Source of the DNA: Patescibacteria group bacterium
GTDB lineage: Bacteria > Patescibacteriota > Minisyncoccia > Phycocordibacterales > Zambryskibacteraceae
Assembly: GCA_004322205.1 (NCBI GenBank)
Contig: SCSN01000008.1
Span: 18,370 to 82,369 of the forward strand
Reading direction: 5' to 3'
Length of the DNA stretch: 64,000 nucleotides
Position numbers and translations under genes: made by a program. The notes beneath the pieces were generated by a model. The model made no database searches, was not told the origin of the DNA, and saw nothing but the letters and a program-made list of their open reading frames with translations. This document shows, piece by piece, positions 2,500 through 28,994 of this stretch (position 1 is its first letter; every line of letters starts with the position of its first letter).

Positions 2500-4350
2500 C
2501 TAAACGCCAAGCACTACAGGGATGACGATAGGGCGCTTGGCGGTTTTTTGGAAGAGAAAACGGCTGACCGCGTCGTTGACGTTTGCTTTGACGAAGTCGA
2601 AGTTAATGGGGTTCATGCCGAAGGTAGCTTTCTCGATCGTTCGCTTAATAATGAGCCGGGTTTGCGAAAGCAGTTCCTGTGATTCGCGCAGATAGACAAA
2701 GCCGCGCGAAATTATATCCGGAGATTTCTTGAGCTTGCCGGTTTTGATGTCAATGGTTGCGACAATGACGACAAAGCCGTCCTCGGCAAGCATCTTGCGG
2801 TCTCGCATCACCACTTCTTGGACGTTGCCGATGGAAAAACCGTCAACCAGGACAGGGCTAGAGGGCGCCGATTCTTTGAGTTTGACGAGTCTTTTACCCT
2901 CATCTTGAATCTCGATGACCATGCCGTTGTCGGGGACGATGATATTCTCCGGTGTTATTCCGAGAGAGAGCGCCACTTCTTCGTGAACGCGGAGCATGTA
3001 GTGGGTGCCGTGGATGGGGATAAAGAAACGCGGATGAATTTTTCTGTGAAGCCATTCGAGCTCGCCGCGGTTGCCGTGCCCGGTTGAGTGAATATAGACG
3101 TCGGAGGTGCGGTAGTGGATGATCTTGGCCCCTTGCCGAGCAAGGTTGTCTTTGAGTTTCTGCACCGCCCTTTCATTGCCGGGAATGATGGAGGAAGAAA
3201 GAAGAACCGTATCATTTTTAGTGATCTTGACGTACTTGTGGCTTTTGAGAGACATTCGCATCAGGGCGGCGAATTCGTCGCCTTGGGCGCCGGTGGCGAG
3301 AATAATGATTTTGTCTGGAGGGTATCTCTCCATCACTTCTGGCATAATAATGGTGTCAGGTTTAACTTTGAGTCTGCCGACCTTAGCGGCGATTTCAACG
3401 TTGGTTTTCATGCTGCGCCCTTCAACCACCACCTTTTTGTCGTAGCGCTCGGCGCTCTCGATAATTGCAACGACGCGCTCAATTTGTGAGGCGAAGGTGC
3501 CGATGATAAGGCGGCGCTTGGTGGTGCGAATGATTTCGTCCAAATTTTTGTGGACGAGACTCTCCGGAGTGGACCAGCCGGGATTTTCAACATTAGTTGA
3601 GTCCATCATCAGGAGAAGAACATTTGCATTTTCAAAAATTGAATACTCTTCCTCCTCTGCTTCCGTTGGCACACCATCGACGTGATCAAGCTTGATGTCG
3701 CCGGGATTAACGATCCAGCCTTGGGGAGTCTCAATGATAATGCCCATCGATTCAGGGATGGTATGGGTAACGGCAAAAAAGCGCACCTTGAGATTGCCGA
3801 CGCTGATATGGTCCTCTTTTTCAACCATCCGCAGATCAAGAGCGGGAAGATGAGGAAATTCCTCCTGGCGCTTGCGAATCATGATGGAAGTGAGAAAGCG
3901 GGTGTAGATGGGAGGGTTGCCGATCCGGTTCATTATGTAAGGGATAGCGCCGATATGGTCGAGGTGTCCGTGGGTGATGATGAGGGCGCGCACTTTGTCT
4001 TTGCGCTCTTCGAGGTATTTGGTGTTGGGCAGGATATAGTCAATGCCCGGCGTGTCTTCCTCGCGGAACTGAAAACCGGCATCAAGGACAATAATGTCGT
4101 TGCCGTACTCGACTACCGTCATATTCTTGCCGATTTCCTCAACTCCGCCCAGGGGGATGATGCGGATACTGTCGCCAGCCGGAGGAATCTTTTCTTCTTC
4201 CGGTCGTGTTGCGATCTGCCTCTGCGTCCCACGCATCGGACGGCGCGGACGCCGGAGCATTCCCATGCCGCGCACTCGAAGGTTTGGAGCTTGGCGGGGG
4301 CGCAGCCGGGTGATGTGTTGAGAGAAAGAATCTTGGTGTTGTGGGTTCAT
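2500..4350 (-). CDS. rnj: ribonuclease J
   Basis: Metallo-beta-lactamase HxHxDH motif (ITHGHLDHIG) with beta-CASP and RNase J C-terminal regions. Also carries a basic N-terminal extension of roughly 60 aa. Confidence 0.9.
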   Translation of the reverse strand: MNPQHQDSFSQHITRLRPRQAPNLRVRGMGMLRRPRRPMRGTQRQIATRPEEEKIPPAGDSIRIIPLGGVEEIGKNMTVVEYGNDIIVLDAGFQFREEDTPGIDYILPNTKYLEERKDKVRALIITHGHLDHIGAIPYIMNRIGNPPIYTRFLTSIMIRKRQEEFPHLPALDLRMVEKEDHISVGNLKVRFFAVTHTIPESMGIIIETPQGWIVNPGDIKLDHVDGVPTEAEEEEYSIFENANVLLLMMDSTNVENPGWSTPESLVHKNLDEIIRTTKRRLIIGTFASQIERVVAIIESAERYDKKVVVEGRSMKTNVEIAAKVGRLKVKPDTIIMPEVMERYPPDKIIILATGAQGDEFAALMRMSLKSHKYVKITKNDTVLLSSSIIPGNERAVQKLKDNLARQGAKIIHYRTSDVYIHSTGHGNRGELEWLHRKIHPRFFIPIHGTHYMLRVHEEVALSLGITPENIIVPDNGMVIEIQDEGKRLVKLKESAPSSPVLVDGFSIGNVQEVVMRDRKMLAEDGFVVIVATIDIKTGKLKKSPDIISRGFVYLRESQELLSQTRLIIKRTIEKATFGMNPINFDFVKANVNDAVSRFLFQKTAKRPIVIPVVLGV

Positions 4351-4365
4351 ATGATATGTGGATTG

Positions 4366-6117
4366 TTAAAAGCGAGTGAAAATCTTCCAGACTTTGCTTG
4401 TCTCAATGTACCAGCGGTTGATTGCAGAGAATCGCTCGCTCCCCGTAACTAGGGTGCCGAGGGTAATGCCTTTAATGTTTCGAGGGATGAGGTAGAGGAA
4501 TTGCGGCGAGTAGACAAAGACCACGGGACGATCATTCCCAATTTCTTTCTCGAGCGCAGCGTAGGTTTCGAGGCGCTTTTCTCTGTCGGAGAGCGTTCGG
4601 GCAGTCTCCAGGAGCTTATCAGCCTTGCTGTTGACGTAGAGAGCGATGTTGAGGCCCGGATCGTTGCGCTGGGACGAGTGCCAGAAAGGGTAGAGATCAA
4701 TGTCTCTGCCGACCACTTCACCGAAAAAGAGGGCATCGTAGCGGCGCGGCCGAATGACGTCCTGGTTGAGGTCGCCGGTTTCATAAACCAGAACGGTGAC
4801 GTTGGCTCCGAGGTCATTCCACTGCTCTTGGATGCTTTTGGCGGCCAGTTTAAGTTCCGGTGCGTCCCCGGTGGCGAGCGAGAAAGCCAGAGAGAAATTT
4901 TCCTTCTTGGTTTTTTTCTCGTAAATGCCGTCGACCCCTTTCTTCCAGCCGTTCTTCTCGAGGAGCGCCCGAGCTTCTTCTTTCGAGTGTTCTTTCTCCG
5001 AGAGCTTACCCACACTCCCTCCTGTCAGCGCCGCGGGAATTGGCCCTTCAAGAACGCTGCCGTATCCGGAGAGTACGTCGCGCACGATTTTATCTTTGTC
5101 GAGAGCCAGGTCGAGAGCCAGGCGCACTTCTTTGTTGGTAAAAAGGTGAGCCTGATTTTGGTTGAAGAAGATGCCGAAGATGCGCGGCAGGTCGCCGACT
5201 GCAACCGGAGCGCCGGAGCGGGAAAGCTCGCTAACGAGGCTCGGAGAAACGCCGGCAACACTCTCGACACCGCCGCTCTTGTAGGCTTTCACCGCCTCGC
5301 TCTCATTGGCGAAGAATTTGAAGGTTAGTGTCCTAATGTAGGGCTCGCCTAGAGTGTAGCGGTCCGAGGCGCGCAAGCGGTATTCGTTGGGGATGCCGGC
5401 GGAGTTGCGCCGTGAGCTGGCGACACGGTAAGATCCGGAACCCACCGGCTCGATGTTGTACTGGCTGAAAGGGAATTCGTCAGCCGCCACGTTCTTCCAA
5501 ATATGGCTGGGAAGAATGCCCACGGTCATGTTTTCAAGAAACGGCGCGTAAGGCTGTTTTAAGGTAAAGCGAATCTCTCGCTCGCTCACTTTCTCCACCA
5601 CCACTCCATCCCAATTGCCGCGCTTTGGACTTTTTACTGCCGGGTCCTGAATTTTCTCTATGGTGAATTTGATGTCATCGGCGCTGACAAGTTGCCCGTC
5701 GTGGAAGCGGGCGTTTGGCTTGAGGAAAAAAGTATAGGTCTTCCCGTCCTCAGAGATTTCGTAGCGTTCGGCGAGATCGGGGATGAGTTCGCCATCGGGA
5801 GTCGGGCGCAGCAACCCCGAGTAGACGAGGAAAGAGAGATCACGATCCGCATCGGAGAGCGCCAGGACGGGGTTGACGAAGCGAGGAGAGCCGATGATTC
5901 CTTCGGTTAGGTGCCCGCCGCGCTCAGGGACTTCGACGAGAAAGTTGCCGTTTGTTTTGAGGACAAGTCCTATTCCAGAAAGTACGAAAATTGAAGAGAG
6001 CGTCCAAAAAGCCAGCCGTTCGGCAGGTGAAAACGACTGAACTGCCCGCTCGATGGCGCGTTCTCCCGGCAGACGGAATTTCTTATAGAGCAATTTCTGG
6101 AGAATTTCACTCTTCAC
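4366..6117 (-). CDS. ABC transporter substrate-binding protein, family 5 (peptide/nickel type)
   Basis: 583-aa protein with an N-terminal membrane anchor and overall resemblance to OppA/DppA-like solute-binding proteins. Confidence 0.7.
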   Translation of the reverse strand: MKSEILQKLLYKKFRLPGERAIERAVQSFSPAERLAFWTLSSIFVLSGIGLVLKTNGNFLVEVPERGGHLTEGIIGSPRFVNPVLALSDADRDLSFLVYSGLLRPTPDGELIPDLAERYEISEDGKTYTFFLKPNARFHDGQLVSADDIKFTIEKIQDPAVKSPKRGNWDGVVVEKVSEREIRFTLKQPYAPFLENMTVGILPSHIWKNVAADEFPFSQYNIEPVGSGSYRVASSRRNSAGIPNEYRLRASDRYTLGEPYIRTLTFKFFANESEAVKAYKSGGVESVAGVSPSLVSELSRSGAPVAVGDLPRIFGIFFNQNQAHLFTNKEVRLALDLALDKDKIVRDVLSGYGSVLEGPIPAALTGGSVGKLSEKEHSKEEARALLEKNGWKKGVDGIYEKKTKKENFSLAFSLATGDAPELKLAAKSIQEQWNDLGANVTVLVYETGDLNQDVIRPRRYDALFFGEVVGRDIDLYPFWHSSQRNDPGLNIALYVNSKADKLLETARTLSDREKRLETYAALEKEIGNDRPVVFVYSPQFLYLIPRNIKGITLGTLVTGSERFSAINRWYIETSKVWKIFTRF

Positions 6118-10506: not shown

Positions 10507-10820
10507 ATGCAATCTAAAGGAGACAACCTTTTGCACGAGGTAGCTATTAATGCAATTATTGCAAAGGATAACTCTTATCTCGTCACTATGTAACGAGTTT
10601 GGCGACTATTCATGCAGATGGATCACCTTCACTGGTTATTTCATGCCTAGCTCACTATGCCGGTGGGGAAGTTATCCTCAAAGAAGATGAAACCGACAAG
10701 TTTGCGTGGGTAACAATAGAGGAAGCGAAAACCTATGATCTTATTGATGGTATTTATGACAAAATTATGATGGCGGACAAGCTTAGCAAGGGCGAAAGGT
10801 CGGAGTGGAAACATAGCTAG
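10507..10820 (+). pseudogene. degraded NUDIX hydrolase remnant (frameshifted, Nudix box missing)
   Basis: A 29-aa N-terminal fragment (10507-10593, MQSKGDNLLHEVAINAIIAKDNSYLVTM) ends in TAA. A C-terminal-like fragment in another frame (10599-10820, ...KFAWVTIEEAKTYDL...) follows. The GX5EX7REUXEEXGU box is absent. Confidence 0.4.
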
Positions 10821-10840: not shown

Positions 10841-11734
10841 ATGGCAAGTCTTTACAGGCACCAGTCGGCAAACGTTCGCAAGACATGGCTCTTTGTATCC
10901 ATGTTCTTTGTATTTCTCATCCTCCTCGGCTGGGTCTTTAGCCGAGTTTACGGTAATCCGACCATTCTATATTTCTTCGTCTTTTTTTCAGTCATTCTAA
11001 ATATATTTAGCTATTGGTTCTCCGACAGAATTGTTCTTAAACTCCACCGCGCCAAACCGGTCACCCGCCAAGAATATTTTGACCTCTGGAACGCCACCGA
11101 GAATCTCTCTATCACCGCCGGCCTTCCACAGCCCAAGCTCTATGTTATTGACGATCCGGCGCCGAACGCTTTTGCAACCGGCAGAAACAAGGAACACGCC
11201 GTGGTAGCAGTGACAACAGGACTCCTTCGTATTCTTGATAAAACAGAGCTTGAAGGTGTGATTTCCCATGAGCTTTCCCACATCGGAAACCGCGACATGC
11301 TTCTTTCAACGATTGTGGTGGTGCTTGTTGGTTTTGTAACTCTGCTTTCTGATTTTTTCCTGCGCACTGCCCGCTGGGGCGGTGGAAGGAGCAGCCGCGG
11401 CAATCAAATTCAAGTAATTTTTTTGCTGGTCGGAATAATTCTCGCTATCCTCTCGCCTTTGATTGCTACTCTCATCCAGCTTGCCATTTCTCGCAAGCGG
11501 GAATTTCTGGCAGATGCCTCTGGTGCGCTTCTGACCCGCTATCCGGAAGGTCTGGCCAATGCCCTGCGGAAAATTTCTGCCGCCGGCATTTCTATGCGTA
11601 CAGCCAATCACGCCACCGCTCATTTGTTTATTGCCAATCCCTTTGGCCAAACGGCGCGCCTTGTTGGAAAATTCTTTATGACCCACCCTCCAGTAGAGGA
11701 GCGGATAGCGGCTCTGCTCGAATCACAGACGTGA
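10841..11734 (+). CDS. htpX: zinc metalloprotease HtpX (peptidase M48)
   Basis: HELSHIGNRD HExxH motif with flanking TM segments, about 297 aa as expected. Confidence 0.9.
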   Translation: MASLYRHQSANVRKTWLFVSMFFVFLILLGWVFSRVYGNPTILYFFVFFSVILNIFSYWFSDRIVLKLHRAKPVTRQEYFDLWNATENLSITAGLPQPKLYVIDDPAPNAFATGRNKEHAVVAVTTGLLRILDKTELEGVISHELSHIGNRDMLLSTIVVVLVGFVTLLSDFFLRTARWGGGRSSRGNQIQVIFLLVGIILAILSPLIATLIQLAISRKREFLADASGALLTRYPEGLANALRKISAAGISMRTANHATAHLFIANPFGQTARLVGKFFMTHPPVEERIAALLESQT

Positions 11735-12345
11735 GCGATGAACTTAAAAAAGAAAAAGAGACACTCAAAGCGCGAATCACGGAGCTTGAGAGAGAAAATG
11801 AGAGGCTTGAAGCCGATCTTATTCACGACCATCTGACTGGGCTTAAGACACGGAAGTTTTTTGAAGAGGAGCTTGGAATATATCTTGAGACGATTAAGAA
11901 AAGCAGATTGAGCCGCCGGCGCGAATGGTTTGGATTCAGAGTTCTCTCAGTCATCCTTTTTGACGCTGATTATTTCAAGCGTCTCAATGATACCCACGGG
12001 CATCTGGTTGGCGACGAAGCCTTGCAAAAAATTGCCTCTGTCGTTGGAGGAAGTTTGCGGGAAGGTGACACGGCGGCGCGCTGGGGAGGGGAAGAGATTA
12101 TTGCACTTCTGCCGGGAGCAAGTGAGAGAGATGCAGTAAAGAAGGCAGAGGAAATAAGAAGGGAAGTGGAGTTCATTCGTTTGGAAGATGTTTCTGACCT
12201 TAAGCTTTCGGTGAGCGCCGGGGTAGCACAGTCGGAGAGCGGAATTTCAATGGATGAACTTGTCAAACGTACCGATAGAGCTCTATATCATGCCAAGAAA
12301 AGGGGCAGAAACAGAGTCTCCGCGTATTCCGAACTTGGACGTTAA
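11731..12345 (+). CDS. GGDEF-domain diguanylate cyclase with N-terminal coiled coil
   Basis: RWGGEEIIALLPG contains the GG(D/E)EF active site, and the surrounding DGC fold blocks DHLTGL and ISVSAGVA are present. Overlaps the htpX stop by 4 nt. Confidence 0.8.
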   Translation: MSDELKKEKETLKARITELERENERLEADLIHDHLTGLKTRKFFEEELGIYLETIKKSRLSRRREWFGFRVLSVILFDADYFKRLNDTHGHLVGDEALQKIASVVGGSLREGDTAARWGGEEIIALLPGASERDAVKKAEEIRREVEFIRLEDVSDLKLSVSAGVAQSESGISMDELVKRTDRALYHAKKRGRNRVSAYSELGR

Positions 12346-12489: not shown

Positions 12490-12501
12490 GTTAAGAAATC
12501 T

Positions 12502-13230
12502 ATGAGAAAATTTATCAATGCGATTATGAAATGGCTGGGGAGCGCCAAAATACTGTCAGTCCCAAGAGGATATGTAGGAAAAGTTCTGGTTTATTATTAC
12601 TTGGCTAAAAACGGAGTGCTATTTTTTTACGATGATCCGGCAAGCACCCAAGTATTTAATTTAATTAAGCAGATCAAAAAAGAAACGGAAATGATTCTCA
12701 AGGATCATGAGGCTTACCAAATATATAGGACGGTGAGAGAAACTGAAAAAATTAAGGGGGATATTGCTGAAGTCGGTGTGTATAAAGGAGGTTCAGCGAA
12801 ACTTATATGTGAGGCCACGAAGAAACCGGTGCATTTATTTGATACTTTTGAGGGACTGCCGGATTTATGTGAAATTGACAACCCGGAGCAGTTTCGCAAA
12901 GGAGATTATTCCGCCCAGTTTGAAAATGTTAAGAGCTACCTTAAAAAGTATCCGGACGTTTATTTTTACAAAGGACTTTTCCCTTCGACTTCTGAACTCG
13001 TAAAAAATAAAAAATTTTCATTTGTTCATCTTGATGTAGATCTTTATGAATCCACGCTGAATTGCCTAAAATTCTTTTATCCCAAAATAAACAGAGGGGG
13101 TGTTATCATTTCTCACGATTATCTAAAATCGGAGGGGGTTAAGAGAGCGTTTGACAAGTTTTTTAAAGATAAACCGGAGATAATTATTGAACTGCCCGCA
13201 TGTGATCAGTGTCTAGTTGTTAAATTATAA
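12502..13230 (+). CDS. class I SAM-dependent O-methyltransferase (TylF/MycF macrocin-O-MT-like)
   Basis: DIAEVGVYKGGSAKLI...LFDTFEGLPD and VHLDVDLYEST blocks are typical of TylF-family methyltransferases. Confidence 0.7.
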   Translation: MRKFINAIMKWLGSAKILSVPRGYVGKVLVYYYLAKNGVLFFYDDPASTQVFNLIKQIKKETEMILKDHEAYQIYRTVRETEKIKGDIAEVGVYKGGSAKLICEATKKPVHLFDTFEGLPDLCEIDNPEQFRKGDYSAQFENVKSYLKKYPDVYFYKGLFPSTSELVKNKKFSFVHLDVDLYESTLNCLKFFYPKINRGGVIISHDYLKSEGVKRAFDKFFKDKPEIIIELPACDQCLVVKL

Positions 13231-13375
13231 CCAAAGGGCGCGAATTGAGGGAATTTGCCGTCTCATATCGCCAAGACTTCGCAGGGCAATGCAAAGAAAA
13301 ACTCAAGGTCTTCAGACACTGCCTTGGCTTTTGACCTTTTTCTAATGAGGCTGATTCGTTTGGTATAATGAAAAG

Positions 13376-13750
13376 GTGAACGAGGAAGAGCTGAAAAAGA
13401 AACTCTCGCCGGAGGCATACCATGTCTTGCGCCAGGCCGGGACAGAAGTACAGTTTTCGGGAGAGTATGTTCGTACAAAAGAGAGAGGCATGTACCGCTG
13501 TGCCGCATGTGGGGCCCAACTTTTCTCATCCGATGCCAAGTTCAATTCCGGAACGGGTTGGCCGTCGTTTGACGAGGCGCTGCCCGGGGCAGTTGAACTC
13601 CGCGATGACAGCAGCCTCGGTATACGTCGAACTGAAGTTAAATGCAAAAACTGCGGCTCCCACTTGGGACATGTTTTTGACGACGGTCCCAAAGAAACAA
13701 CCGGCAAACGCTACTGCATAAACTCTGTCTGCCTTGATTTGCAAAAATAA
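13376..13750 (+). CDS. msrB: peptide-methionine (R)-S-oxide reductase MsrB
   Basis: CxxC ... CxxC zinc site plus the GTGWPSF and RYCINS catalytic blocks. GTG start after an extended -10 (TGGTATAAT). Confidence 0.9.
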   Translation: MNEEELKKKLSPEAYHVLRQAGTEVQFSGEYVRTKERGMYRCAACGAQLFSSDAKFNSGTGWPSFDEALPGAVELRDDSSLGIRRTEVKCKNCGSHLGHVFDDGPKETTGKRYCINSVCLDLQK

Positions 13751-13754
13751 TCTA

Positions 13755-14363
13755 ATGGCAAAGTATAAAAAATCTATTTTCTTTTTTGTTCTTATTTTAT
13801 TGATTGCCGGCGCGGGATATTTGTTTCGCGGCAGACTTTTCCCGCCGAGCGCAAAATCCGAGCGGCAGCCGCCGCTATCCGAGGCGGCGGCTGGGGAATA
13901 TGAAAGCGAAGCTTTCAGTTTTTCTTTCTCTTATTCTTCGGTACACACTGTTCGGGAGGAGTCTCAATCGAGTGTCGCTCTCGTCAATAAAGAAACCGGC
14001 AGAGAGGAAGCGCGACTCGATGTTATCCTTGAAAGCGGAGATGTCGAGGTGCCCTATGAGCAATTTGTCCTTGACGAATCACGCGCTCTTTGCGAAGCCG
14101 CCGGAGCAAATCTTTCGTGCCGAGAAGTGAAAGATCTCTCATCTATCGTGAATAAAAACGGTTTATCGGCGCAGAAATTTTATCTTGTTCTGGAAGAAAA
14201 ATTAGAAGATTCTGTCACCAGCCGCGAAAAAGGGCCGTTTTACGCTTTTAATTTTTCGGAAAACACTCCCGGGAAAATGAGTTTTATTCTCATTCATCCA
14301 CCTATCGCCAGCCGCGGCTCCGTTGATTTGCTCTCTAAGATCGCGGATTCATTCGCGTTTTAA
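13755..14363 (+). CDS. hypothetical membrane-anchored protein
   Basis: Start moved to the ATG after the msrB stop. N-terminal TM, no recognisable domain. Confidence 0.45.
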   Translation: MAKYKKSIFFFVLILLIAGAGYLFRGRLFPPSAKSERQPPLSEAAAGEYESEAFSFSFSYSSVHTVREESQSSVALVNKETGREEARLDVILESGDVEVPYEQFVLDESRALCEAAGANLSCREVKDLSSIVNKNGLSAQKFYLVLEEKLEDSVTSREKGPFYAFNFSENTPGKMSFILIHPPIASRGSVDLLSKIADSFAF

Positions 14364-22515: not shown

Positions 22516-24144
22516 ATGCGCCAGGAGCTTGAGCGAATTCTTGAGGGAAGAGTGGCTGACGATGAGACAACACTTGCAACCTACAGCCGCGACGCCAGTC
22601 TCTGCGAAGTCAAACCGCACCTCGTTGTTTTTCCCAGAGGCAGTGAAGACATTCAAAAGTTGGTGCGGTTTGTGTCAGAGCGTAAGACAAATGATCCAAC
22701 TCTCTCCATCACTGCACGTGCCGCCGGCAGCTGCATGTCGGGAGGACCGCTCGGTGAATCTATCATTCTCGACACCAGTCGCTACATGAGGGGAGTACCC
22801 AGCTTTGATGGATCAGTCGCCGAAGTTTTGCCGGGAACTTTTTATCGCGATTTTGAAAAAGAGACCTTGAGGCGAGGCCTTATCTTACCTTGCTATACCG
22901 CCTCAAAGGACCTCTGCGCTCTCGGCGGGATGATTGGCAACAATGCGGCGGGAGAAAAGACTCTTCGCTACGGCAAAATGGAGGATTATGTTGAGTCGCT
23001 TTCGGTAGTTTTTTCAGACGGCAACGAATATGAAGTCAGACTGCTCTCAAGTGGCGAGCTGAAACGCAAAATCTCTCAAAATGATTTTGAAGCAGAGATT
23101 TATCGTAAGGTCTTTGCGCTGATAGAAGAAAATCGGGAAGAAATTGAGCGCGCTCGCCCCAAGGTCTCAAAGAATTCGGCTGGCTACTATCTCTGGAATG
23201 TTTGGGACGGGCAAACTTTCAATCTGGTGAAGCTCTTGGTCGGCTCTCAAGGCACGCTTGGCATTGTGACGCGCGCCCGGCTTCGTCTGGTGCCGGTGAC
23301 TAAACACTCTCGGCTCTTTGTTATTTTTCTCAAGGACCTCTCTTGCTTAAGCGAGCTTGTCAACATCATCTTACGTTTCCGGCCGGAGTCGCTGGAGAGT
23401 TATGACGACTCCACTCTGCGGCTGGCGGTTCGCTTCTTCCCAGAAATGGTTGGTCTTATGAAGGGAGGGCTTGTCAAGCTGCTCTGGAGCTTTCTTCCCG
23501 AGATTGCCATGGTTTTAACCGGCGGCGTGCCGAAACTTGTGCTTCTCGCCGAGTTTACGGGCGAAACAAACGAGGCTATTGAGCGCACCATGCATACTCT
23601 CGAGAACACTTTACTTGTCTATAAACTGCAGATGCATGTCACTAAGACCGAGGATGAGGCGGGAAAGTACTGGACAATTCGGCGGCAGAGCTTTAATCTC
23701 TTGCGCCGTCACATCCGCGGCAAGCGCACCGCCCCTTTCGTTGACGATGTGGTGGTTGATCCCAAATATCTTCCGGAGTTTCTGCCGAGAATGAGAGCGA
23801 TTTTGGATGAATACAAACTTGTCTATACCATAGCCGGCCATGCCGGCAACGGCAATTTTCACATCATTCCGCTTATGGATATGCGCGACTGCCGCAACGT
23901 CTCTATTATTCTCGAAGTTTCTGACAAGGTCTATGATTTGGTCGCCCGCTACGGCGGCTCAATCACCGCCGAGCACAATGACGGCATCATTCGCACGCCG
24001 TATTTGGGGAAAATGTTTTCTCCGAAAATGCTCGAGCTTTTTGCCGAAGTAAAAAACATCTTCGACCCGCGGAACATCTTTAATCCTGGCAAAAAGGTTG
24101 GCGGTTCAGTCGAGTATTTGAAAGAGCATATATCAGGAAAATAG
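22516..24144 (+). CDS. FAD-linked oxidase (FAD_binding_4 / GlcD-D-lactate dehydrogenase-like)
   Basis: Start at the ATG 1 nt after the fba stop. PCMH-type FAD-binding blocks in the N-terminal half and an FAD-oxidase C-terminal domain. Confidence 0.8.
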   Translation: MRQELERILEGRVADDETTLATYSRDASLCEVKPHLVVFPRGSEDIQKLVRFVSERKTNDPTLSITARAAGSCMSGGPLGESIILDTSRYMRGVPSFDGSVAEVLPGTFYRDFEKETLRRGLILPCYTASKDLCALGGMIGNNAAGEKTLRYGKMEDYVESLSVVFSDGNEYEVRLLSSGELKRKISQNDFEAEIYRKVFALIEENREEIERARPKVSKNSAGYYLWNVWDGQTFNLVKLLVGSQGTLGIVTRARLRLVPVTKHSRLFVIFLKDLSCLSELVNIILRFRPESLESYDDSTLRLAVRFFPEMVGLMKGGLVKLLWSFLPEIAMVLTGGVPKLVLLAEFTGETNEAIERTMHTLENTLLVYKLQMHVTKTEDEAGKYWTIRRQSFNLLRRHIRGKRTAPFVDDVVVDPKYLPEFLPRMRAILDEYKLVYTIAGHAGNGNFHIIPLMDMRDCRNVSIILEVSDKVYDLVARYGGSITAEHNDGIIRTPYLGKMFSPKMLELFAEVKNIFDPRNIFNPGKKVGGSVEYLKEHISGK

Positions 24145-24248
24145 AGCCTAAAAATAGGAGTAGATTTGGGCACATAATTCTATTAACAAACTATAAGTTT
24201 GGGTGTATGATGTTAAGTAGGTAGAACCTTGAGAAAGCTACTTGTATT

Positions 24249-24299
24249 TATGTACAGCTTTGAGAGTGGTTCCTCGAACTTCTTTCCAAGCTGTACATA
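24249..24299. promoter_or_regulatory. nested palindrome (12-bp arms TATGTACAGCTT/AAGCTGTACATA enclosing GTTCCTCGAAC), candidate operator
   Basis: Perfect 12-bp inverted arms separated by 27 bp that themselves contain the GTTC-CTC-GAAC palindrome. Lies about 70 nt upstream of the GC-rich ORF at 24367. Confidence 0.35.
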
Positions 24300-24366
24300 A
24301 CAGGCCCGCTCTAGGTCCCGGCATTTGGTCGGAGCTTACGGGTGAGCCACAAACAAGGAGAAAGTC

Positions 24367-24984
24367 ATGACCGCCAAGGCCGTGACAACCGCGCAGTTAG
24401 AGCAGATCCGCAAGATGGCGAAGGAGAAGGGCGTCAGCCGCGACCAGTTCCAGCTGGGGCTCGACAACGGAATGTTCGCACGCACCCTCGACGAGCTCAT
24501 CGTCGGCAAGGTGACGGAAACACCAACGGGCCTCTTCCGCCTCGCCGTGGACTGGGGTCGGACGACCGAGGAGATGGTCCGGGCGTGCCAGTACGACTGT
24601 GCCAACCCGGATATCACCGAGGAACACTTCCCCCGGCCGCGCACGAGCGGCGTCGTGAAGGGCGACTACAAGCTCTTTCACTTCAACCGCAATATCTCAT
24701 CGGACCAGGCTGTCCGCGAGATACGCGCCGAGGGCTTCGAGCTTACCGGAGCGCACGAGATCCTCGTCTTCAGGGAGAAGTTCCCCGAGGAGCAGCGGAA
24801 GTTCACCATCGTTGGCCTCGGCGATCCCCTCTGGCGGCGGGACCGGTACGGCTACCGGCACGTGGTTGTGCTCCGCAGGCACGAGGCGCGCCGCTCCGCT
24901 GACCTGACCCTCTGGGAGGTCGTCTGGCCTCCGCTCTACCGCTTCCTCGCCCGTCGCCTGCCTGCCGGACAGGCAGGCAAGTAG
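24367..24984 (+). CDS. hypothetical protein (GC-rich ORFan with canonical SD)
   Basis: 205 aa, AAGGAG 5 nt upstream, very GC-rich by eye, followed by its own terminator. I see no recognisable domain. Confidence 0.5.
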   Translation: MTAKAVTTAQLEQIRKMAKEKGVSRDQFQLGLDNGMFARTLDELIVGKVTETPTGLFRLAVDWGRTTEEMVRACQYDCANPDITEEHFPRPRTSGVVKGDYKLFHFNRNISSDQAVREIRAEGFELTGAHEILVFREKFPEEQRKFTIVGLGDPLWRRDRYGYRHVVVLRRHEARRSADLTLWEVVWPPLYRFLARRLPAGQAGK

Positions 24985-25030
24985 GACCTGGGTCCTAGGA
25001 AAACGGAGCTTCTGGAATTCTAGACCCTCG

Positions 25031-25062
25031 GCCCGCGTGTCTAACGATGCGCGGGCTTTTGC
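25031..25062 (+). terminator. rho-independent terminator
   Basis: GCCCGCG-loop-CGCGGGC followed by TTTTGCT. Confidence 0.6.
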
Positions 25063-25092
25063 TATGTAAGAGCTTTAAAATCTCCTAAAATT

Positions 25093-25120
25093 TTGATTTC
25101 TATAACTTTATCTGTATAAT
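25093..25120 (+). promoter_or_regulatory. promoter of rplY (TTGATT-16-TATAAT), leaderless-type
   Basis: -35 at 25093-25098, -10 at 25115-25120, ATG at 25129. Confidence 0.5.
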
Positions 25121-25128
25121 ACTCCGGC

Positions 25129-25815
25129 ATGTTGGAACTTCAGGTTGAAAAGAGAGAAAAAGCAGGAAAAGTCGAAGGATTGCGCCGAGGAGGCGTGATG
25201 CCGGCAGTTCTCTATGGTAAAAAACAATCCTCGATACCAATTTCAATTTCCTACCGTGATTTTTTGAAGGTTTGGAAGAAGGCGGGAGAGTCGGCGGTGG
25301 TGACGCTCAAGGAGAAGGACGGGAAAACCTTTGACGCCCTGATTCACGATGTTGATATTGATCCGGTAACGGGAAGCCCGCGCCACGCGGACTTTTATGT
25401 TTTTGAAGCGGGACACAGGGTGAGAGTGTCGGTGCCTCTTGAATTCGTAGGTGTTGCCCCCGGCGTAAAAGACCACGGCGGTCTCTTGGTAAAAGTTTTG
25501 CACGAGTTTAAAGTTGAAGCGATGCCAAAAGATTTGCCGGTTCAGCTTGAAGTGGACATCTCCAAACTTGAAGCTATCGGCAATCAACTGCTCGCCAAAG
25601 ATATTGCTATGCCTGCCGGTGTAACAGCGCTTGAAAGTCCAGATGAGATCACGGCACTCGTTGCCGAGCCGAAGAAAGAGAAGGAAGAAGCTCCCGCCGA
25701 GCCGGTTGATCTCTCTGCTATTGAAGTTGAGAAGAAGGGAAAGGAAAAAGAAGGAGAGGAGGAGACAGCTCCAGGGAAAGCCTCAGGAGAAGTGGCAAAA
25801 AAAGCAGAGAAGTGA
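25129..25815 (+). CDS. rplY: ribosomal protein L25 / general stress protein Ctc
   Basis: MLELQVEKREKAGK...GGVMPAVLYG...HDVDIDPVTG pattern, with an acidic and lysine-rich C-terminal tail. Confidence 0.9.
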   Translation: MLELQVEKREKAGKVEGLRRGGVMPAVLYGKKQSSIPISISYRDFLKVWKKAGESAVVTLKEKDGKTFDALIHDVDIDPVTGSPRHADFYVFEAGHRVRVSVPLEFVGVAPGVKDHGGLLVKVLHEFKVEAMPKDLPVQLEVDISKLEAIGNQLLAKDIAMPAGVTALESPDEITALVAEPKKEKEEAPAEPVDLSAIEVEKKGKEKEGEEETAPGKASGEVAKKAEK

Positions 25816-25877: not shown

Positions 25878-25886
25878 TGGTATAAT
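25878..25886 (+). promoter_or_regulatory. extended -10 (TGGTATAAT)
   Basis: TGnTATAAT 15 nt upstream of the ATG at 25901. Confidence 0.4.
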
Positions 25887-25900
25887 TGAAAGCACGCCGT

Positions 25901-27304
25901 ATGACCAATACTCGCCAACGCGCCGTGGTGAAACTTGCGCCTTTGTTTCTGTTCATTCTCTCTCTTCTCTTTCTGCCGTTTGTTTCTTCTGCCCAGACCC
26001 TGACAGAGCAGCGGATTGCCGACCAAGAAACGAAACTCCGCGCCGAATACGACGCTCTCCAGAAAGAAATCGAGAAGTGGCAGGGGATTCTCACTGAAAC
26101 ACAGAAAAAGGCAAGCACCTTGCAAGGTGATATTTCCTTTTTGAACGCCAAAATCAAGGAGGCGGAGCTTACCATCAAAGCAAAAAACATTGCCATCGGG
26201 CAACTGGCTAAGGAAATCGGAGTCAAGACCAAAAAAATTGGTGAACTTGAGGGGAAGCTCGCGCGGGGCAGGCAGTCCCTCGCTGAACTCATCCGCAAGA
26301 CCAATGAACTCGATTCATATTCGCTGCCCGAAGCAATTCTTACGAATAAAGATCTTTCCGAGTTCTTTAAAGATTTTGATTCATATTTGTCGATTAAGAG
26401 TGCTCTGCAAGAGCATTTTGCTGAAGTTCGGCAAGTTAAAAAACAGACCGAAGCGGAACGGGAGCAACTTGACGTCAAAAAAAATCAGGAGACTGACGCC
26501 AAGTATGTAGTGGAGAGCCGCAAGAAAGTCATCGGTCAAAGCCAGAAAGAAAAAACGCAGCTGCTTACCGTAACAAAGCAAGAAGAAAAAACCTATCAGA
26601 CGGTTTTGGCTGAACGACAGAAGCGGGCGGCGCAAATCCGAGCGGCGCTCTTCCGTCTTCGCGACACTGAAGGCATTCCTTTCGGCAAAGCTCTCGAGTA
26701 TGCAGGCCTTGCTTCCTCAAAAACAGGTGTTCGGCCGGCTCTTATTCTCGCCATTCTTTCGCAGGAGTCCGACTTAGGAAAAAACCAGGGCTCCTGCATT
26801 CTCTCAAGTCTTACGACTGGCGATGGAGTAGGGAAGAATACGGGCACATTTTTTGAAAAAGTTATGAAAGCGCCGCGCGACACGGAGCCGTTTGAGAACA
26901 TTACCAAACAGCTGGGGAGGGAATGGACCTTGACGCCAGTTTCTTGTCCGCCCGGGACGACATATTCCACGAGCCGCGGCTACGGCGGCGGCATGGGCCC
27001 CTCGCAGTTCATCCCCTCCACCTGGGAGCTCTTCAAGGAGCGCATTGGGAGTATTATCGGACTCGGTGCTGACAGCCTTGATCCTTGGAATCCGGAGCAT
27101 TCGTTCGTGGCGACGGCAATTTATCTCTCTGATTTGGGGGCGGCTGGCGACGGGTATTCGGCGGAGCGCAATGCGGCCTGCAAATATTATTCCGGCGCCT
27201 CTTGCCGAGCGGGGCGCAAGCCACCCAATGTTTTTTACGGCGATTCAGTGATGCAGAAAGCGGAGGAGATACAAAGTAATATCGACTTTTTGAAGGGGGT
27301 TTAA
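25901..27304 (+). CDS. secreted coiled-coil protein with C-terminal lytic transglycosylase (MltB-like) domain
   Basis: Signal peptide, long heptad-rich region, then LAILSQESDLG (catalytic Glu) and GGGMGPSQFIPSTW, which is characteristic of MltB-family transglycosylases. Confidence 0.6.
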   Translation: MTNTRQRAVVKLAPLFLFILSLLFLPFVSSAQTLTEQRIADQETKLRAEYDALQKEIEKWQGILTETQKKASTLQGDISFLNAKIKEAELTIKAKNIAIGQLAKEIGVKTKKIGELEGKLARGRQSLAELIRKTNELDSYSLPEAILTNKDLSEFFKDFDSYLSIKSALQEHFAEVRQVKKQTEAEREQLDVKKNQETDAKYVVESRKKVIGQSQKEKTQLLTVTKQEEKTYQTVLAERQKRAAQIRAALFRLRDTEGIPFGKALEYAGLASSKTGVRPALILAILSQESDLGKNQGSCILSSLTTGDGVGKNTGTFFEKVMKAPRDTEPFENITKQLGREWTLTPVSCPPGTTYSTSRGYGGGMGPSQFIPSTWELFKERIGSIIGLGADSLDPWNPEHSFVATAIYLSDLGAAGDGYSAERNAACKYYSGASCRAGRKPPNVFYGDSVMQKAEEIQSNIDFLKGV

Positions 27305-27337
27305 AAGAGCTTCTTAGCTAGTTAGCTTATTAGAAAC

Positions 27338-27379
27338 TGCACACCAAAAAATGGCTCAAAAGAGCCATTTTTTGGTGTG
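27338..27379. terminator. bidirectional intrinsic terminator (19-bp perfect arms)
   Basis: GCACACCAAAAAATGGCTC-AAAA-GAGCCATTTTTTGGTGTGC. Confidence 0.7.
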
Positions 27380-27403
27380 CAGGCAAAGAAAATGCAAAAA
27401 TTA

Positions 27404-27431
27404 TTGACAGAAAACACTGATATGCTATAAT
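27404..27431 (+). promoter_or_regulatory. consensus promoter TTGACA-16-TATAAT
   Basis: TTGACA at 27404-27409 and TATAAT at 27426-27431. No ORF follows, only a GC-rich structured region. Confidence 0.5.
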
Positions 27432-27437
27432 TAGTTG

Positions 27438-27795
27438 GAGATCAGTTCGGGGAGGTAAGTAAGCCGCAAGGCCGAAATTCCCCTTCGAGCGTAAGTCCTT
27501 AGGTTGCTCTATTCGTCGGAGCGCCGGGCAGCAAGGTGGGGTCCTCTCTTCTAACGGTGCGTTTGTGTAGGAGATGGTAAGTTATCGGCCTGACGCGGCA
27601 GCCGGTTCGGCGCCCGCGCCCAGTGCGTCCAGCCTAACAAAGAGGGCGGGACGGATGAACGGAGCCCCCGCGGGGCACATCCTCTGGAGTGTATCGTTCC
27701 ACTCCCCGGTAACTAGCCAAGTCTAGACTCTCCCACGCAAACGTGCTGGGGCCTCGTCGCAGTCGTAGTTGACCGCGGCGGGGCCTCTTTGTTTT
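27438..27795 (+). ncRNA. candidate structured ncRNA of about 360 nt (GC-rich; identity unresolved)
   Basis: Sits between a consensus promoter and a GC hairpin plus T-tract (GGGGCCTC...CTTTGTTTTTATT). Contains many GNRA-closed hairpins such as GCC-GCAA-GGC. No credible ORF in any frame. Confidence 0.35.
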
Positions 27796-27873
27796 TATTA
27801 TATTCTGTATTGTGCTTTACTGTCACTGTACTAGAGTACTAGAAATTTAATATCTTAATATCCCAGCAGTAGT

Positions 27874-27901
27874 CTTAGTATATCATATATGATGCATTAA
27901 G
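27874..27901. repeat. palindrome family member 1 (CTTAGTATATCATATATGATGCATTAAG, imperfect)
   Basis: Shares the ATCATATATGAT core with the copies at 28518 and 32649. Confidence 0.5.
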
Positions 27902-28069
27902 AAACTCGCAAGAAACTGGCTGTTAGGCGAGTTTTTAGCTTTTGGTTCCAAATTGAAACTATTGAAACTACTGCCTCTTGCTTCCATGACTTATGTTTTC
28001 GCCGCGTCTCCGCTTTTTACACCTTCTCCTTGACAGGCGTCTTTGGGTTGCTATGGTTGGACTAGAGGC

Positions 28070-28416
28070 TCTTGTGCGCCGTGTGAGCAGAAGGGTCAGT
28101 GACTGCGGACGGAGAACTTCAGCGCGTCTCTCCTGGGCACCGGCGCACACAAAAAGACTGGGCAACAGCAGTCTAAGAGCTCATAACCCCGATGGTTGTG
28201 GTGTTCTCGCACCCGTTGTCCAGCCACAATCGTGCTTGTGTCTCGCACACTTTCTTGGGCGAAAGACAATGCGACTCTTGCTTCGGCGAGGGGGGAATGT
28301 AGGTATGGACGGAGCAGTTCCAGCCCAGCGTGGCGCTCGCCACGCACTCCAGGCTTACAAAACCAGCACAGGCATGGACCCCCACGCACGCCACCGTGGG
28401 GGTCTGTCTTTTTCTG
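28070..28416 (+). ncRNA. second candidate GC-rich non-coding transcript (about 350 nt)
   Basis: Weak promoter (TTGACA-16-TATGGT at 28030-28063) and a strong terminator (GACCCCCACG...CGTGGGGGTC plus TGTCTTTTTCTG, 28378-28416). The only ORFs are Arg/Ser-rich overlapping pairs on both strands, typical of non-coding GC-rich DNA. Confidence 0.25.
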
Positions 28417-28517
28417 TCGGGGTGCAGGGCTTTCGGCAAGGTTTGAACGTAAAGATCGAAGCGCGAAAATTTCGCGGGAAACACAGAAAAAGCAAGAAAC
28501 CATGAAACTCTCCTTTC

Positions 28518-28543
28518 TTAGTCTATCATATATGATAGACTAA
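28518..28543. repeat. palindrome family member 2 (TTAGTCTATCATATATGATAGACTAA, perfect 26 bp)
   Basis: Perfect palindrome about 100 nt upstream of rpmE. Confidence 0.55.
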
Positions 28544-28650
28544 GCGTGCAAAAGACAAGAAAGTTTAAGAAAACTGTTGGATTCGCGGCGATAGGTGTAG
28601 GTCAAGTGCCACCCTTGCTTTTTATTTTAAGATTGTTATATTCAGCTCGC

Positions 28651-28869
28651 ATGAAAAAAGACATCCATCCTCAATATTTTGATAAGGCAAATGTCGTCTG
28701 CGCCTGCGGCAATACTTTTACCATTGGCTCGACAAAAGAACGAATCGAGGTGGAAATCTGCAGCGCCTGCCACCCCTTTTACACCGGCACCGAGAAAATC
28801 ATTGACTCCGCCGGACGAGTTGAGAAATTCAAATCCAGGCGCGCCAAAGCGGCAAAGAGCAAGAAATAA
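28651..28869 (+). CDS. rpmE: ribosomal protein L31
   Basis: MKKDIHPQY...CACG...[10 protein letters not shown] zinc-ribbon L31 pattern. Start trimmed to the ATG at 28651, 8 nt after an extended -10 (TGTTATATT). Confidence 0.9.
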
Positions 28870-28994
28870 CTAATAACGAGCGACAAACGACCGACCCCAA
28901 ACGAAATGACGACTGGCAGCGAGCTATTTCGTACGGGGCAGGCGACTGGCGACCTTAAAATCTTGCATTTGTCTTGTTTGTTGTTGGTTGAGAT

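Follow-up and report, generated by a model that had tools for sequence, protein, structure and literature searches.

The window, by which we mean the whole 64-kb stretch of DNA that was analysed, is part of a 118-kb contig and contains a 205-aa open reading frame flanked by a FAD-binding oxidase gene on its 5′ side and by rplY on its 3′ side. A preliminary description of this DNA had placed the ORF between these two genes, preceded by a palindrome with 12-bp perfect arms that encloses a second palindrome (24249-24299) and by an AAGGAG ribosome binding site, and followed by a terminator-like hairpin. We found all of these elements in the sequence, and the ORF is GC-rich as described (GC 0.65 vs 0.49 window-wide). 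Downstream of the oxidase stop codon (24142-24144) the following features were annotated, some of them named after homologs that are linked to diversity-generating retroelements (DGRs):

24183..24211, + strand: promoter-like site of the sigma-70 kind (-35 TTAACA at 24183-24188, 17-nt spacer, -10 TATGAT at 24206-24211; 10/12 in the consensus scan)
24224..24235, + strand: degenerate element at the boxA position, GAACCTTGAGAA, a positional homolog only
24248..24300, + strand: leader hairpin 1 (arms 24248-24272 and 24276-24300, loop CTC; repeat search and RNA fold)
24303..24348, + strand: predicted leader hairpin 2 (GGC.CCGCUCUAGGU...GCUUA.CGGGU.GCC; minimum-free-energy fold)
24355..24360, + strand: Shine-Dalgarno sequence AAGGAG, 6 nt 5′ of the ATG at 24367, read from the sequence
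24367..24984, + strand: gene of the 205-aa protein (GenBank TAL49202.1, “hypothetical protein EPN83_01530”; ORF with an exact database match)
24388..24513, + strand: three-helix module at the N-terminus (residues 8-49; from the model's secondary structure)
24535..24957, + strand: C-type-lectin/FGE-like alpha/beta domain (residues 57-197), closing with the family motif YRFLA.R
24826..24957, + strand: variable-region equivalent (final ~44 codons of the lectin domain), which aligns with template and variable repeats from 21 DGR-linked homologs
24956..24978, + strand: perfect GC hairpin GCCTGCCTG-CCGGA-CAGGCAGGC in the last codons, right after the variable-region equivalent (repeat search, DNA fold)
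24985..25029, + strand: 3′ trailer of degenerate YT.GG repeats (GGACCTGGGTCCTAGG...CTGGAATTCTAGACCCTCGG)
25030..25062, + strand: intrinsic-terminator-like hairpin (hairpin 25030-25057, then TTTTG; 12 pairs in the consensus scan, including 8 G-C)

The product of the ORF, which begins MTAKAVTTAQLEQIRK..., had been taken for an ORFan without a recognisable motif. We found instead that it belongs to a large family: an exhaustive profile search returned 6,714 cluster representatives at E <= 1e-3, of which 4,157 reach <= 1e-10 (a word-index search with the 205-aa protein gave 8 matches only). Pfam covers none of the 6,714 representatives, and Pfam, PHROG and PDB sequence searches with the protein itself gave no useful match. 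Structure prediction, which the preliminary description had proposed, was run with AF2 and yielded a confident model (pLDDT 81, pTM 0.69) with a C-type-lectin/FGE fold, and a search of a viral library returned C-type lectins only, each of them weak. The C-terminal motif RF.A.R is similar to the end of FGE-type lectin domains. The proteins P0008 and P0009 are ~80% identical to the product over residues ~7-35, and their C-terminal domains are at most 30% identical to its own. By eye, the 205-aa protein shows neither a signal peptide nor a hydrophobic segment. The GC3 of the ORF is 0.87, and that of the two neighbouring genes is 0.57 and 0.48.

A genome scan, for which the query was an alignment of 9 closer sequences, gave 47 loci with homologs, almost all of them in Patescibacteria. 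Against the loci L004-L036 with variable region/template pairs, tblastn of the 205-aa protein gave E values from 3e-31 to 1e-16, and the protein has the motifs DIT.E.FP, FHFNR.ISS, PEEQRKFPIVGLG and YRFLAVR in common with the DGR-linked homologs. In 21 of the 47 loci the last 103-139 nt of the homolog are repeated ~350-600 nt downstream at 81-88% identity, and 380 of the 394 mismatches between the repeats fall at template adenines. A reverse transcriptase-like ORF lies 3′ of the template repeat, so that the gene order is target gene, template repeat, reverse transcriptase; all four of the ORFs tested match RVT_1 (E ~1e-21 to 1e-24), and tblastn found reverse transcriptase homologs in 27 of the 47 loci. 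Furthermore, the target gene is strongly enriched in synonymous GC and the adjacent reverse transcriptase gene of the relatives is not. Collectively, the 3′-end repeats with their adenine mismatches and the adjacent RVT_1 reverse transcriptase identify the family, on sequence grounds, as the variable protein of Patescibacteria DGRs. Such retroelements were reportedly first surveyed by Paul et al. (Nat Microbiol, 2017). In the homologs, the reverse transcriptase copies the nearby template repeat, misreads its adenines and rewrites the final ~44 codons of the lectin domain. We infer that the 205-aa protein binds a ligand and that DGR mutagenesis gave its binding face the present shape.

The window copy is an ordinary member of this family, and its assignment as a DGR target gene is based on homology. 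The codons that are AAC or AAT in the template consensus are mostly NNC in the window, and the window differs from the template consensus at 24 of 35 A positions vs 42 of 106 positions elsewhere (Fisher p = 0.003, a comparison confounded by GC content). The adenine content is 0.10 in the variable-region equivalent and 0.19-0.26 in the remaining ORF. The perfect 9-bp GC hairpin at 24956-24978 stands immediately 3′ of the RFLARR codons, and by eye several DGR-linked homologs have a short hairpin at the equivalent place. In known DGR targets, Guo et al. (2011) reportedly described a hairpin or cruciform downstream of the variable region.

The search for a retroelement covered about 24 kb upstream and 39 kb downstream of the gene. 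The repeat finder and blastn found no repeat of 24200-25100 within the 64-kb window, no window ORF combines the YxDD and G..SQ motifs, and tblastn with 10 family reverse transcriptases gave no match. We also scanned metagenomes for a template repeat with the adenine-free 19-mer CCGCTTCCTCGCCCGTCGC, and discarded all 120 loci as chance matches in unrelated GC-rich DNA.

One explanation is that the gene is an active remote target, whose codons ~154-197 are rewritten in trans by a DGR elsewhere in the genome. The ORF is intact with a confident model, the leader and trailer are kept, the variable-region equivalent is poor in adenine, the perfect GC hairpin follows it exactly as in the DGR-linked homologs, and the visible genome amounts to the 64 kb of the window; all of this would fit a gene that is still being rewritten. 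However, besides the lack of a reverse transcriptase or template repeat in the span covered, the template repeat of each of the 21 DGR loci matches the adjacent gene only (each locus was examined up to 10 kb on each side). In one locus (L041), the template of a complete DGR fails to match a solitary paralog that lies 5 kb away. Furthermore, solitary copies are common, as ~12 of the 47 loci extend at least ~5 kb downstream of the gene and show no reverse transcriptase match there, and the variable region of the window gene is identical in a contig of a second sequencing run. The identical second run, the L041 paralog and the commonness of solitary copies incline us to a fixed copy: the window gene is most likely no longer diversified, which we consider more likely than rewriting by a retroelement outside the window, an unlikely state of affairs on this evidence.

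The two palindromes upstream of the gene form one long hairpin. The perfect arms TATGTACAGCTT (24249-24260) and AAGCTGTACATA (24288-24299) and the inner palindrome GTTC-CTC-GAAC (24269-24279) fall within arms of 25 nt that are 84% complementary (92% with G.T pairs) around a 3-nt loop, and the leader (24215-24380) folds better than 200 of 200 shuffles (z = -3.96). Hairpin 1 could be aligned with 27 family leaders, and across the 28 sequences we found 17 pairs (95% paired), 13 of them with compensatory changes, which none of 500 shuffles equalled. The window hairpin agrees with the family in its position and shape. The family core is CCAUAGC/GCUAUGG, and the window has GUACAGC/GCUGUAC, nearest to the variants of L030, L033 and L039. 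A covariance model from which the window was left out scores the window hairpin at 13.3 bits (+ strand) and 2.8 bits (- strand) over its full length. The leave-one-out E value is 4.8e-4 in the 222-nt leader and 0.14 window-wide, and in the window-wide scan the hairpin ranks third, below an unrelated palindrome. These values give modest support to the window's own copy as a probable divergent member of the leader family.

The preliminary description had read the nested palindrome as an operator-like site, that is, as a DNA operator through which a dimeric regulator would control the ORFan. Perfect arms of 12-13 bp between the promoter-like site and the ribosome binding site would suit such a role, and the CCATAGC/GCTATGG core of the relatives could be a protein recognition sequence. 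However, the arms reach 25 nt via G.T pairs, which are mismatches on the opposite strand, and across the 28 leaders G.T pairs outnumber A.C pairs (38 vs 9), with one G.U wobble kept in 21 of the 28. The loop ranges from 3 to >40 nt, which makes the spacing of the half-sites variable, the site lies 3′ of the -10 element and thus within the transcript, and the gene is not an ORFan. Taken together, the compensatory pairing, the kept G.U, the varying loop and the higher covariance-model score on the sense strand point to a stem-loop of the mRNA leader (5′ UTR) and not to a dimer-binding DNA site, and we regard the operator as very improbable. A protein may bind the RNA or the DNA form of hairpin 1.

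That the hairpin at 24248-24300 is instead a terminator or 3′ stabiliser of the FAD oxidase transcript, unrelated to the ORF, is hardly credible: the stem is strong and lies ~100 nt past the oxidase stop, but no T-run stands behind it (the next bases are ACAGGCCCGC), the terminator scan did not report it, a promoter-like site separates it from the oxidase stop, it accompanies the family gene in 30 other loci, the upstream genes of which are unrelated, and it is absent from relatives without the cassette.

Rfam (4,227 models, gathering threshold) found two tRNAs only in the window. A permissive search gave nothing below E = 1 in the cassette and noise only in the GC-rich 27.3-28.7 kb region, and on seven homolog loci Rfam found rRNA and tRNAs only. 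The leader RNA is therefore not represented in Rfam, and it is a more novel part of the cassette than the protein.

Hairpin 1 is followed by hairpin 2, for which we found 19 pairs common to the window, L002 and L003, 5 of them with compensatory changes and several G.U; as only three sequences are compared, its conservation is tentative. On the 5′ side of hairpin 1, many leaders of the family carry a sequence resembling boxA, whose consensus GYTCTTTAANA (PMC5725501) is gamma-proteobacterial. A match of at least 9/10 is present in 13 of 31 family leaders vs 0.6% of random 70-nt windows, mostly 2-19 nt 5′ of the hairpin and shortly after the -10 element, and DGR-linked relatives such as L012 and L014 have GUUCUUUGAUA. 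In the window the best match within 70 nt before the hairpin is 6/10, which is no better than chance. By eye, there is no clear difference in boxA quality between DGR-linked and solitary copies. Among the Patescibacteria loci only L004 has a 16S gene, and the boxA of its rRNA leader reads GACTTTGACA. A NusB-domain gene is present in the genome (60573-61514 of the window).

The preliminary description had also proposed a self-contained cassette inserted at this place, and comparison with relatives upheld this part. Two loci whose rplY is 67-69% identical to that of the window (L052 and L053) have the same gene order without the cassette, and the gap between the FAD oxidase gene and rplY is 56-85 nt in these loci. 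The ~0.93 kb that the window has in addition, which carries its own promoter-like site, ribosome binding site and terminator, is for this reason read as an insertion, and the synteny of the relatives supports the placement of the putative insert (~24150-25090) 3′ of the FAD oxidase gene and 5′ of the rplY promoter, which is kept. The other cassettes of the family have a strong TTGACA-17-TATAAT promoter at the equivalent relative position, trailers with CCCTTGGAATCTTGGACCCTTGGTCC-like repeats and, in the DGR-linked loci, a terminator-like arrangement likewise after the target gene. A profile of 38 trailers, with the window excluded, has its top window match at 24937-25089 (weak, 6.9 bits, E = 0.099). 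In sum, the features and the inserted cassette of the preliminary description stood, and its ORFan and its operator were not supported.

Two further candidates at the insert were rejected. A direct repeat (24191-24211 and 25100-25120, 76%) by which the cassette promoter would be a duplicate of the rplY promoter was equalled by 378 of 2,000 shuffles. A 17-nt inverted repeat at the flanks of the insert (24151-24167 and 25078-25094), considered as terminal repeats, is short, AT-rich and 76% complementary, and is probably due to chance.

Taken together, we propose with a probability of roughly three in four that the segment is a stand-alone gene cassette for the variable protein of Patescibacteria DGRs that was inserted downstream of the FAD oxidase gene and ahead of the rplY promoter. 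Under this hypothesis, the gene would be transcribed from its own promoter and the palindrome would be the first of two stem-loops in a conserved mRNA leader. Because the leader of the relatives starts with a boxA-like sequence, the leader probably governs elongation or stability of the transcript in addition to translation. The gene would end with the GC hairpin after the variable region, the conserved trailer and the terminator.

We further hypothesize, much more tentatively and at somewhat less than even odds, that DGR variable-protein genes have a new cis-regulatory RNA architecture that serves Nus antitermination and travels as a mobile module, composed of a boxA-like sequence, a ~50-nt CCAUAGC/GCUAUGG hairpin, a second, capped hairpin 5′ of the ribosome binding site and a trailer of YTTGG repeats that precedes a terminator. 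Such a leader could recruit Nus factors, so that the RNA polymerase would pass the terminator and the ~1 kb of template RNA, which is untranslated, and arrive at the reverse transcriptase gene, and antitermination would then set the frequency at which the retroelement fires. The module, from promoter to terminator, would also be able to spread and persist as an independent cassette, as for example in the window.

Antitermination leaders with boxA have been described for rRNA operons, lambda nut sites (boxA, then a hairpin), suhB (PMC5725501) and CRISPR arrays (PMC7665894). The leaders of the relatives are similar in that a boxA-like match precedes a stem-loop, and in the operon that follows, the template repeat and spacer make up ~1 kb of untranslated RNA, a stretch at which Rho would be expected to terminate. 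In contrast to these systems, the element of the window is degenerate (6/10), and the hairpin, at ~50 nt, is much longer than a 15-nt boxB.

A Patescibacteria-restricted clade of DGRs (“clade 2”) with targets lacking recognisable domains was reported by Roux et al. 2021 (PMC8144416). The window protein resembles these targets in its host group and its small size. Like them, it has no signal peptide, no transmembrane segment and no Pfam domain, and its variable region lies at the C-terminus, on a lectin fold that is divergent. It differs in having neither a template repeat nor a reverse transcriptase within the 64 kb, so that a pipeline that starts from the reverse transcriptase and looks for repeats within <=20 kb of it (PMC8144416) would not call this copy. 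The conserved leader and trailer are likewise not mentioned for these targets in the available literature. The structurally solved C-type-lectin DGR proteins Mtd of Bordetella phage BPP-1 (PMC2408619), TvpA of Treponema denticola (PDB 2y3c), TaqVP of Thermus aquaticus (PMC6328139) and an archaeal variable protein (PMC5006420) are similar to the window protein in having their variable residues in the last ~40. In contrast, the window protein has no detectable sequence similarity to them and is far smaller, at 205 aa, and the three-helix module at its N-terminus is unrelated. Proteins of the FGE/sulfatase-modifying factor fold (PvdO, EgtB, OvoA, SenA) are 270-700 aa long, and the window protein has no FGE_sulfatase Pfam match.

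The structured leader, the trailer and the synonymous GC enrichment, none of which is in Rfam or the available literature, provide handles on the expression and spread of these genes. The solitary genes, which amount to about a quarter of the species-level loci (~12/47), escape surveys that begin with the reverse transcriptase. The 205-aa protein and its thousands of metagenomic relatives can now be labelled homologs of a lectin-fold DGR variable protein, and DGR variable proteins are among the few hypervariable proteins of these ultra-small symbiotic bacteria.

We found that the window protein, an exact match to GenBank TAL49202.1 ('hypothetical protein EPN83_01530', on a 118-kb contig), has no match in Pfam or PHROGs, and that Pfam domains are likewise absent from the ten family members checked. 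A word-indexed search returned only 8 relatives. A profile of these 9 sequences (the window protein and its 8 relatives), scored against all 1.84 billion cluster representatives, retrieved 6,714 proteins at E <= 1e-3 and 4,157 at E <= 1e-10, family proteins being mostly about 200 aa long. The window protein belongs to this family, with which it has in common the motifs DIT.E.FP, FHFNR.ISS, PEEQRKFPIVGLG and a C-terminal YRFLAVRK; it is therefore neither the ORFan nor the protein without recognisable motif of the preliminary description.

AlphaFold2, run on the 9-sequence alignment (pLDDT 81, pTM 0.69), predicts an N-terminal part of three helices (residues 8-49), followed by an alpha/beta domain (57-197) with a lectin fold. 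The model resembles the C-terminal domain of Bdellovibrio Bd2740 (7.9), an FGE paralog (6.7), PorK, PvdO, SenA/EgtB/OvoA and dozens of animal C-type lectin domains, while in a viral structure library it resembles C-type lectins only, none significantly. A signal peptide or hydrophobic segment is not visible in the sequence. The C-terminal face, which DGRs (diversity-generating retroelements) vary, probably binds a ligand in the window protein. Some family proteins (P0010, P0011, P0012, P0013 and P0015) carry two or three tandem lectin-fold cores of ~140 aa, each with a terminal RF.AVRK.

Scanning one genome per species with the 9-sequence alignment gave 47 loci, nearly all from Patescibacteria (Saccharibacteria, Paceibacterota, Kaiser-, Adler-, Taylor-, Morani-, Uhr- and Magasanikbacteria) and a few from Bdellovibrionales or Proteobacteria bins. 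In 21 of the 47, the last 103-139 nt of the homolog are repeated ~350-600 nt downstream with 81-88% identity, and 380 of the 394 mismatches between the two copies have adenine in the downstream copy. This bias is the signature of DGR adenine mutagenesis and identifies the upstream copy as variable region and the downstream copy as template repeat. AAC/AAT codons are abundant in the template repeats, at positions that vary among family proteins. Next in the DGR-linked loci comes an ORF that is ~330-390 aa long and contains YxDD and G..SQ motifs, and that in 4/4 cases tested matches Pfam RVT_1 (E ~1e-21 to 1e-24); with ten family reverse transcriptases (RTs) as tblastn queries, RT homologs were found in 27/47 loci. 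Collectively, these results show that the family is a target of DGRs, and its loci match the DGR clade that Roux et al. 2021 (PMC8144416) described as restricted to Patescibacteria.

Several loci have further features. Locus L017, on one Patescibacteria contig, holds two DGR-type RT genes 10 kb apart (115-1149 and 11231-12235), and L004 (9989-14304) has a complete DGR cassette (target, template and RT ending at 12490) directly upstream of a 16S rRNA gene (12854-14304). A conserved element of ~60 nt, CGACAAACGGAAAATTCGAGGTTACGGCTTCGGGTAGTTTGTCCGCAAGCCCGAGGGTGAGA, lies 3' of the target gene and 5' of the template repeat in L015 (~10650-10715); it is also present in L016 (~10530-10600) and L020 (~10545-10610), both lacking an RT, and partially in L021 (~10650-10710). 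The element may belong to the DGR RNA, or it may be what is left of a retroelement that has been lost.

The window gene itself, a homolog of Patescibacteria DGR variable-protein genes, is a solitary inserted cassette. The palindromes, AAGGAG, GC-rich 205-aa ORF and terminator of the preliminary description were all found in place, and its reading as self-contained is borne out by a promoter-like site, RBS and terminator-like hairpin of its own:

24183-24211, promoter-like site TTAACA-17-TATGAT, upstream of hairpin 1
24249-24260 and 24288-24299, perfect arms of hairpin 1, TATGTACAGCTT and AAGCTGTACATA, enclosing GTTC-CTC-GAAC at 24269-24279
24303-24348, hairpin 2, common to the window and loci L002 and L003
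24355-24360, RBS AAGGAG, before the ATG at 24367
24367..24984 (+), ORF of 205 aa
24956-24978, perfect 9-bp GC hairpin directly after the variable-region equivalent (repeat search, DNA fold)
25030-25057, terminator-like hairpin of 12 pairs, then TTTTG

The proposed insertion between the FAD oxidase gene and rplY is confirmed by two relatives without the cassette (rplY 67% and 69% identical), which keep the order PfkB kinase, fructose-bisphosphate aldolase, FAD oxidase, rplY, ~450-aa protein, L31, RF-1, S2 and EF-Ts with an oxidase-rplY gap of 56 and 85 nt, compared to 984 nt in the window. The rplY promoter (TTGATTT-16-TGTATAAT, 25093-25120) is kept in all three, which places the insert at roughly 24150-25090; no convincing sign of a target-site duplication or of terminal repeats was seen there. 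Further along the window, about 1.35 kb without credible ORF (27305-28650) separate a 472-aa gene (25886..27304) from rpmE (L31, ~28652-28870); the counterpart in relatives measures 960 nt (L052) and 143 nt (L053). This stretch, which had no Rfam match even at E <= 1, contains a promoter (TTGACA 27405, TATAAT ~27428) followed by two GC-rich blocks, the first of ~350 nt with a hairpin and T-run at its end (~27745-27795), the second at ~27990-28500. The blocks may be non-coding RNAs of a new kind.

We then considered whether the window copy is still diversified. Over 24 kb to the left end and 39 kb to the right end of the window, itself part of the 118-kb contig, there is no repeat of the gene's 3' end and, by motif scan or tblastn, no RT. 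In an alignment with the template repeats of relatives, the variable-region equivalent (about 24826-24957) reads TAC, CAC, CGC, CAC, TCC, GAC, ACC, GTC, CCT and CTC at places where the template consensus is AAC/AAT. Mismatches to this consensus fall on 24/35 adenine positions vs 42/106 elsewhere (p = 0.003), which, because the test is confounded by the GC-richness of the gene, is only suggestive of a history of adenine mutagenesis. Adenine content is 0.10 in the variable-region equivalent vs 0.19-0.26 in the rest of the gene. Characterised DGRs are said, in work by Guo et al. of 2011, to need a hairpin or cruciform after the variable region; by eye, a short hairpin occupies the position after the variable region in several DGR-linked homologs, as in the window.

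A retroelement elsewhere in the genome that still diversifies the window gene from a distance is the less likely reading. We lean towards a copy that is now fixed, because the 64 kb contain neither RT nor template and because 24828-25210 recurs without any difference on a contig that the same study obtained in another run (SRR8426592). The family points the same way, since templates match only the adjacent gene in 21/21 analysed loci (within the locus read) and about 12/47 loci have a family gene, no RT match anywhere in the locus and ~5 kb or more of sequence readable downstream. Furthermore, locus L041 (2697-4932 and 9983-10651) combines a complete DGR (variable region 2992-3085, template 3466-3559, RT 3973-4932; adenine mismatches 19/19) with a second, solitary family gene 5 kb off; the template finds no match in the 3' end of this second gene. 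The 3' ends of RT-less loci differ from heterologous templates preferentially at adenines, e.g. 22/26 in L020.

The N-terminal helical module and leader (the stretch from promoter to RBS) have ~80% DNA identity to L002 and L003, compared to <=30% protein identity for the lectin domains. The pattern suggests that N-terminal and variable domains have been shuffled as modules among the three, and it fits the modular recombination of DGR targets suggested by Roux et al. (PMC8144416). The stretch of about 80% identity comprises leader and first ~40 codons (window 24301-24480, L002 6065-6270, L003 1870-2050); the <=30% refers to the C-terminal lectin domains of P0008 and P0009.

Next we examined the leader. 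In a recurring 5' layout, family genes have a strong promoter followed by a short U-rich motif and, in many cases, by UUUGCGAAC; next come a long hairpin, whose typical form is UCGCCAUAGC...GCUAUGGCGA, the motif GCCC(N)CUAGC, another hairpin, frequently capped by a GNRA loop, and finally the RBS. In the window, the repeat search resolves hairpin 1 as a single long hairpin with 3-nt loop and arms of 25 nt (24248-24272 / 24276-24300; 84% complementary; 4 non-Watson-Crick positions, 2 of them G.T), and the leader RNA (24215-24380) folds into two adjacent stem-loops (-60.7 kcal/mol, z = -3.96, beating 200/200 shuffles). Hairpin 1 aligns well between 27 loci and the window, and RNAalifold on these 28 gives 17 pairs, 13 with compensatory changes, a covariation that 0/500 shuffles reach. 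Picking each leader sequence as the best hairpin upstream of its gene inflates the paired fraction (95% of cells vs 36-46% with the partner slid 1-3 columns), not the homologous alignment or the compensatory changes. G.T outnumbers A.C (38 vs 9) and one pair is G.U in 21/28 sequences, so the structure belongs to the sense strand. Hairpin 1 is thus most probably a conserved RNA hairpin of the leader rather than the operator-like site first proposed, and we infer that the leader works as RNA, by affecting elongation, stability or translation.

A covariance model from which the window was left out matches the window hairpin over its full length at 24244-24304 (+) with 13.3 bits (antisense 2.8 bits). 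E is 4.8e-4 within the 222-nt leader; for the window as a whole, E is 0.14 and the match comes third, with an unrelated palindromic terminator (27340-27379) ahead of it. Among 25 loci outside the model, only the leaders of L034, L009 and L021 match, and the cassette-less relatives do not. With GUACAGC/GCUGUAC as its core, the window hairpin is a divergent member whose nearest counterparts are those of L030, L033 and L039. Hairpin 2 has 5 compensatory pairs among the window, L002 and L003 (three sequences only). Rfam has no family for the leader of the window or of seven relatives.

In many loci the U-rich motif after the promoter reads GTTCTTTGA(T/A/C)A. Judged by the gamma-proteobacterial boxA consensus GYTCTTTAANA (PMC5725501), 13/31 leaders match at >=9/10 specified positions vs 0.6% of 70-nt windows drawn at random from the same loci. 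The element lies mostly 2-19 nt before the hairpin. This order recalls lambda nut sites, in which boxA is followed by a hairpin. In DGR operons, the target gene is followed by a terminator-like hairpin, and about 1 kb of untranslated RNA separates its stop codon from the start of the RT; together with the boxA-like element, this makes leader-dependent antitermination a reasonable hypothesis. Outside rRNA operons, boxA is known from suhB (PMC5725501) and from CRISPR arrays, where it shields long untranslated transcripts from Rho (PMC7665894). For the window leader, with GAACCTTGAGA at the boxA position and a best match of 6/10, we do not claim a functional boxA. The rRNA leader of L004 contains GACTTTGACA, similar to the boxA-like motif of cassette leaders. 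The window also encodes, directly upstream of the RNase III gene, a 310-313-aa protein with NusB and NUDIX domains (60573-61514; 580-1512 in locus L051), an unusual fusion that bears on the boxA idea.

After the stop codon, family trailers have YTTGG repeats (e.g. CCCTTGGAATCTTGGACCCTTGGTCC), then a GC hairpin and T-run; in the window, GGACCTGGGTCCTAGG...CTGGAATTCTAGACCCTCGG precedes the terminator. When 38 trailers are combined in a profile, its best match in the window lies at this place, at 24937-25089, a weak one (6.9 bits, E = 0.099) that owes part of its score to the last codons. The window ORF is GC-rich (0.65 vs 0.49 for the whole window; GC3 0.87 vs 0.57 and 0.48 in two adjoining genes), and the GC content of the target gene exceeds that of its flanks in 38/39 loci (median +0.106). 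Across 19 DGR-linked loci, the mean GC difference from the flanks is +0.110 for the target gene vs -0.057 for the adjacent RT gene, so the GC-richness is a property of the family and not of foreign DNA in general.

Taken together, the novelty lies mainly in what is family-wide, less in the window copy itself: a structured leader, boxA-like in relatives and not previously described, and, also among the more novel content, a conserved trailer and a GC enrichment specific to the target gene.
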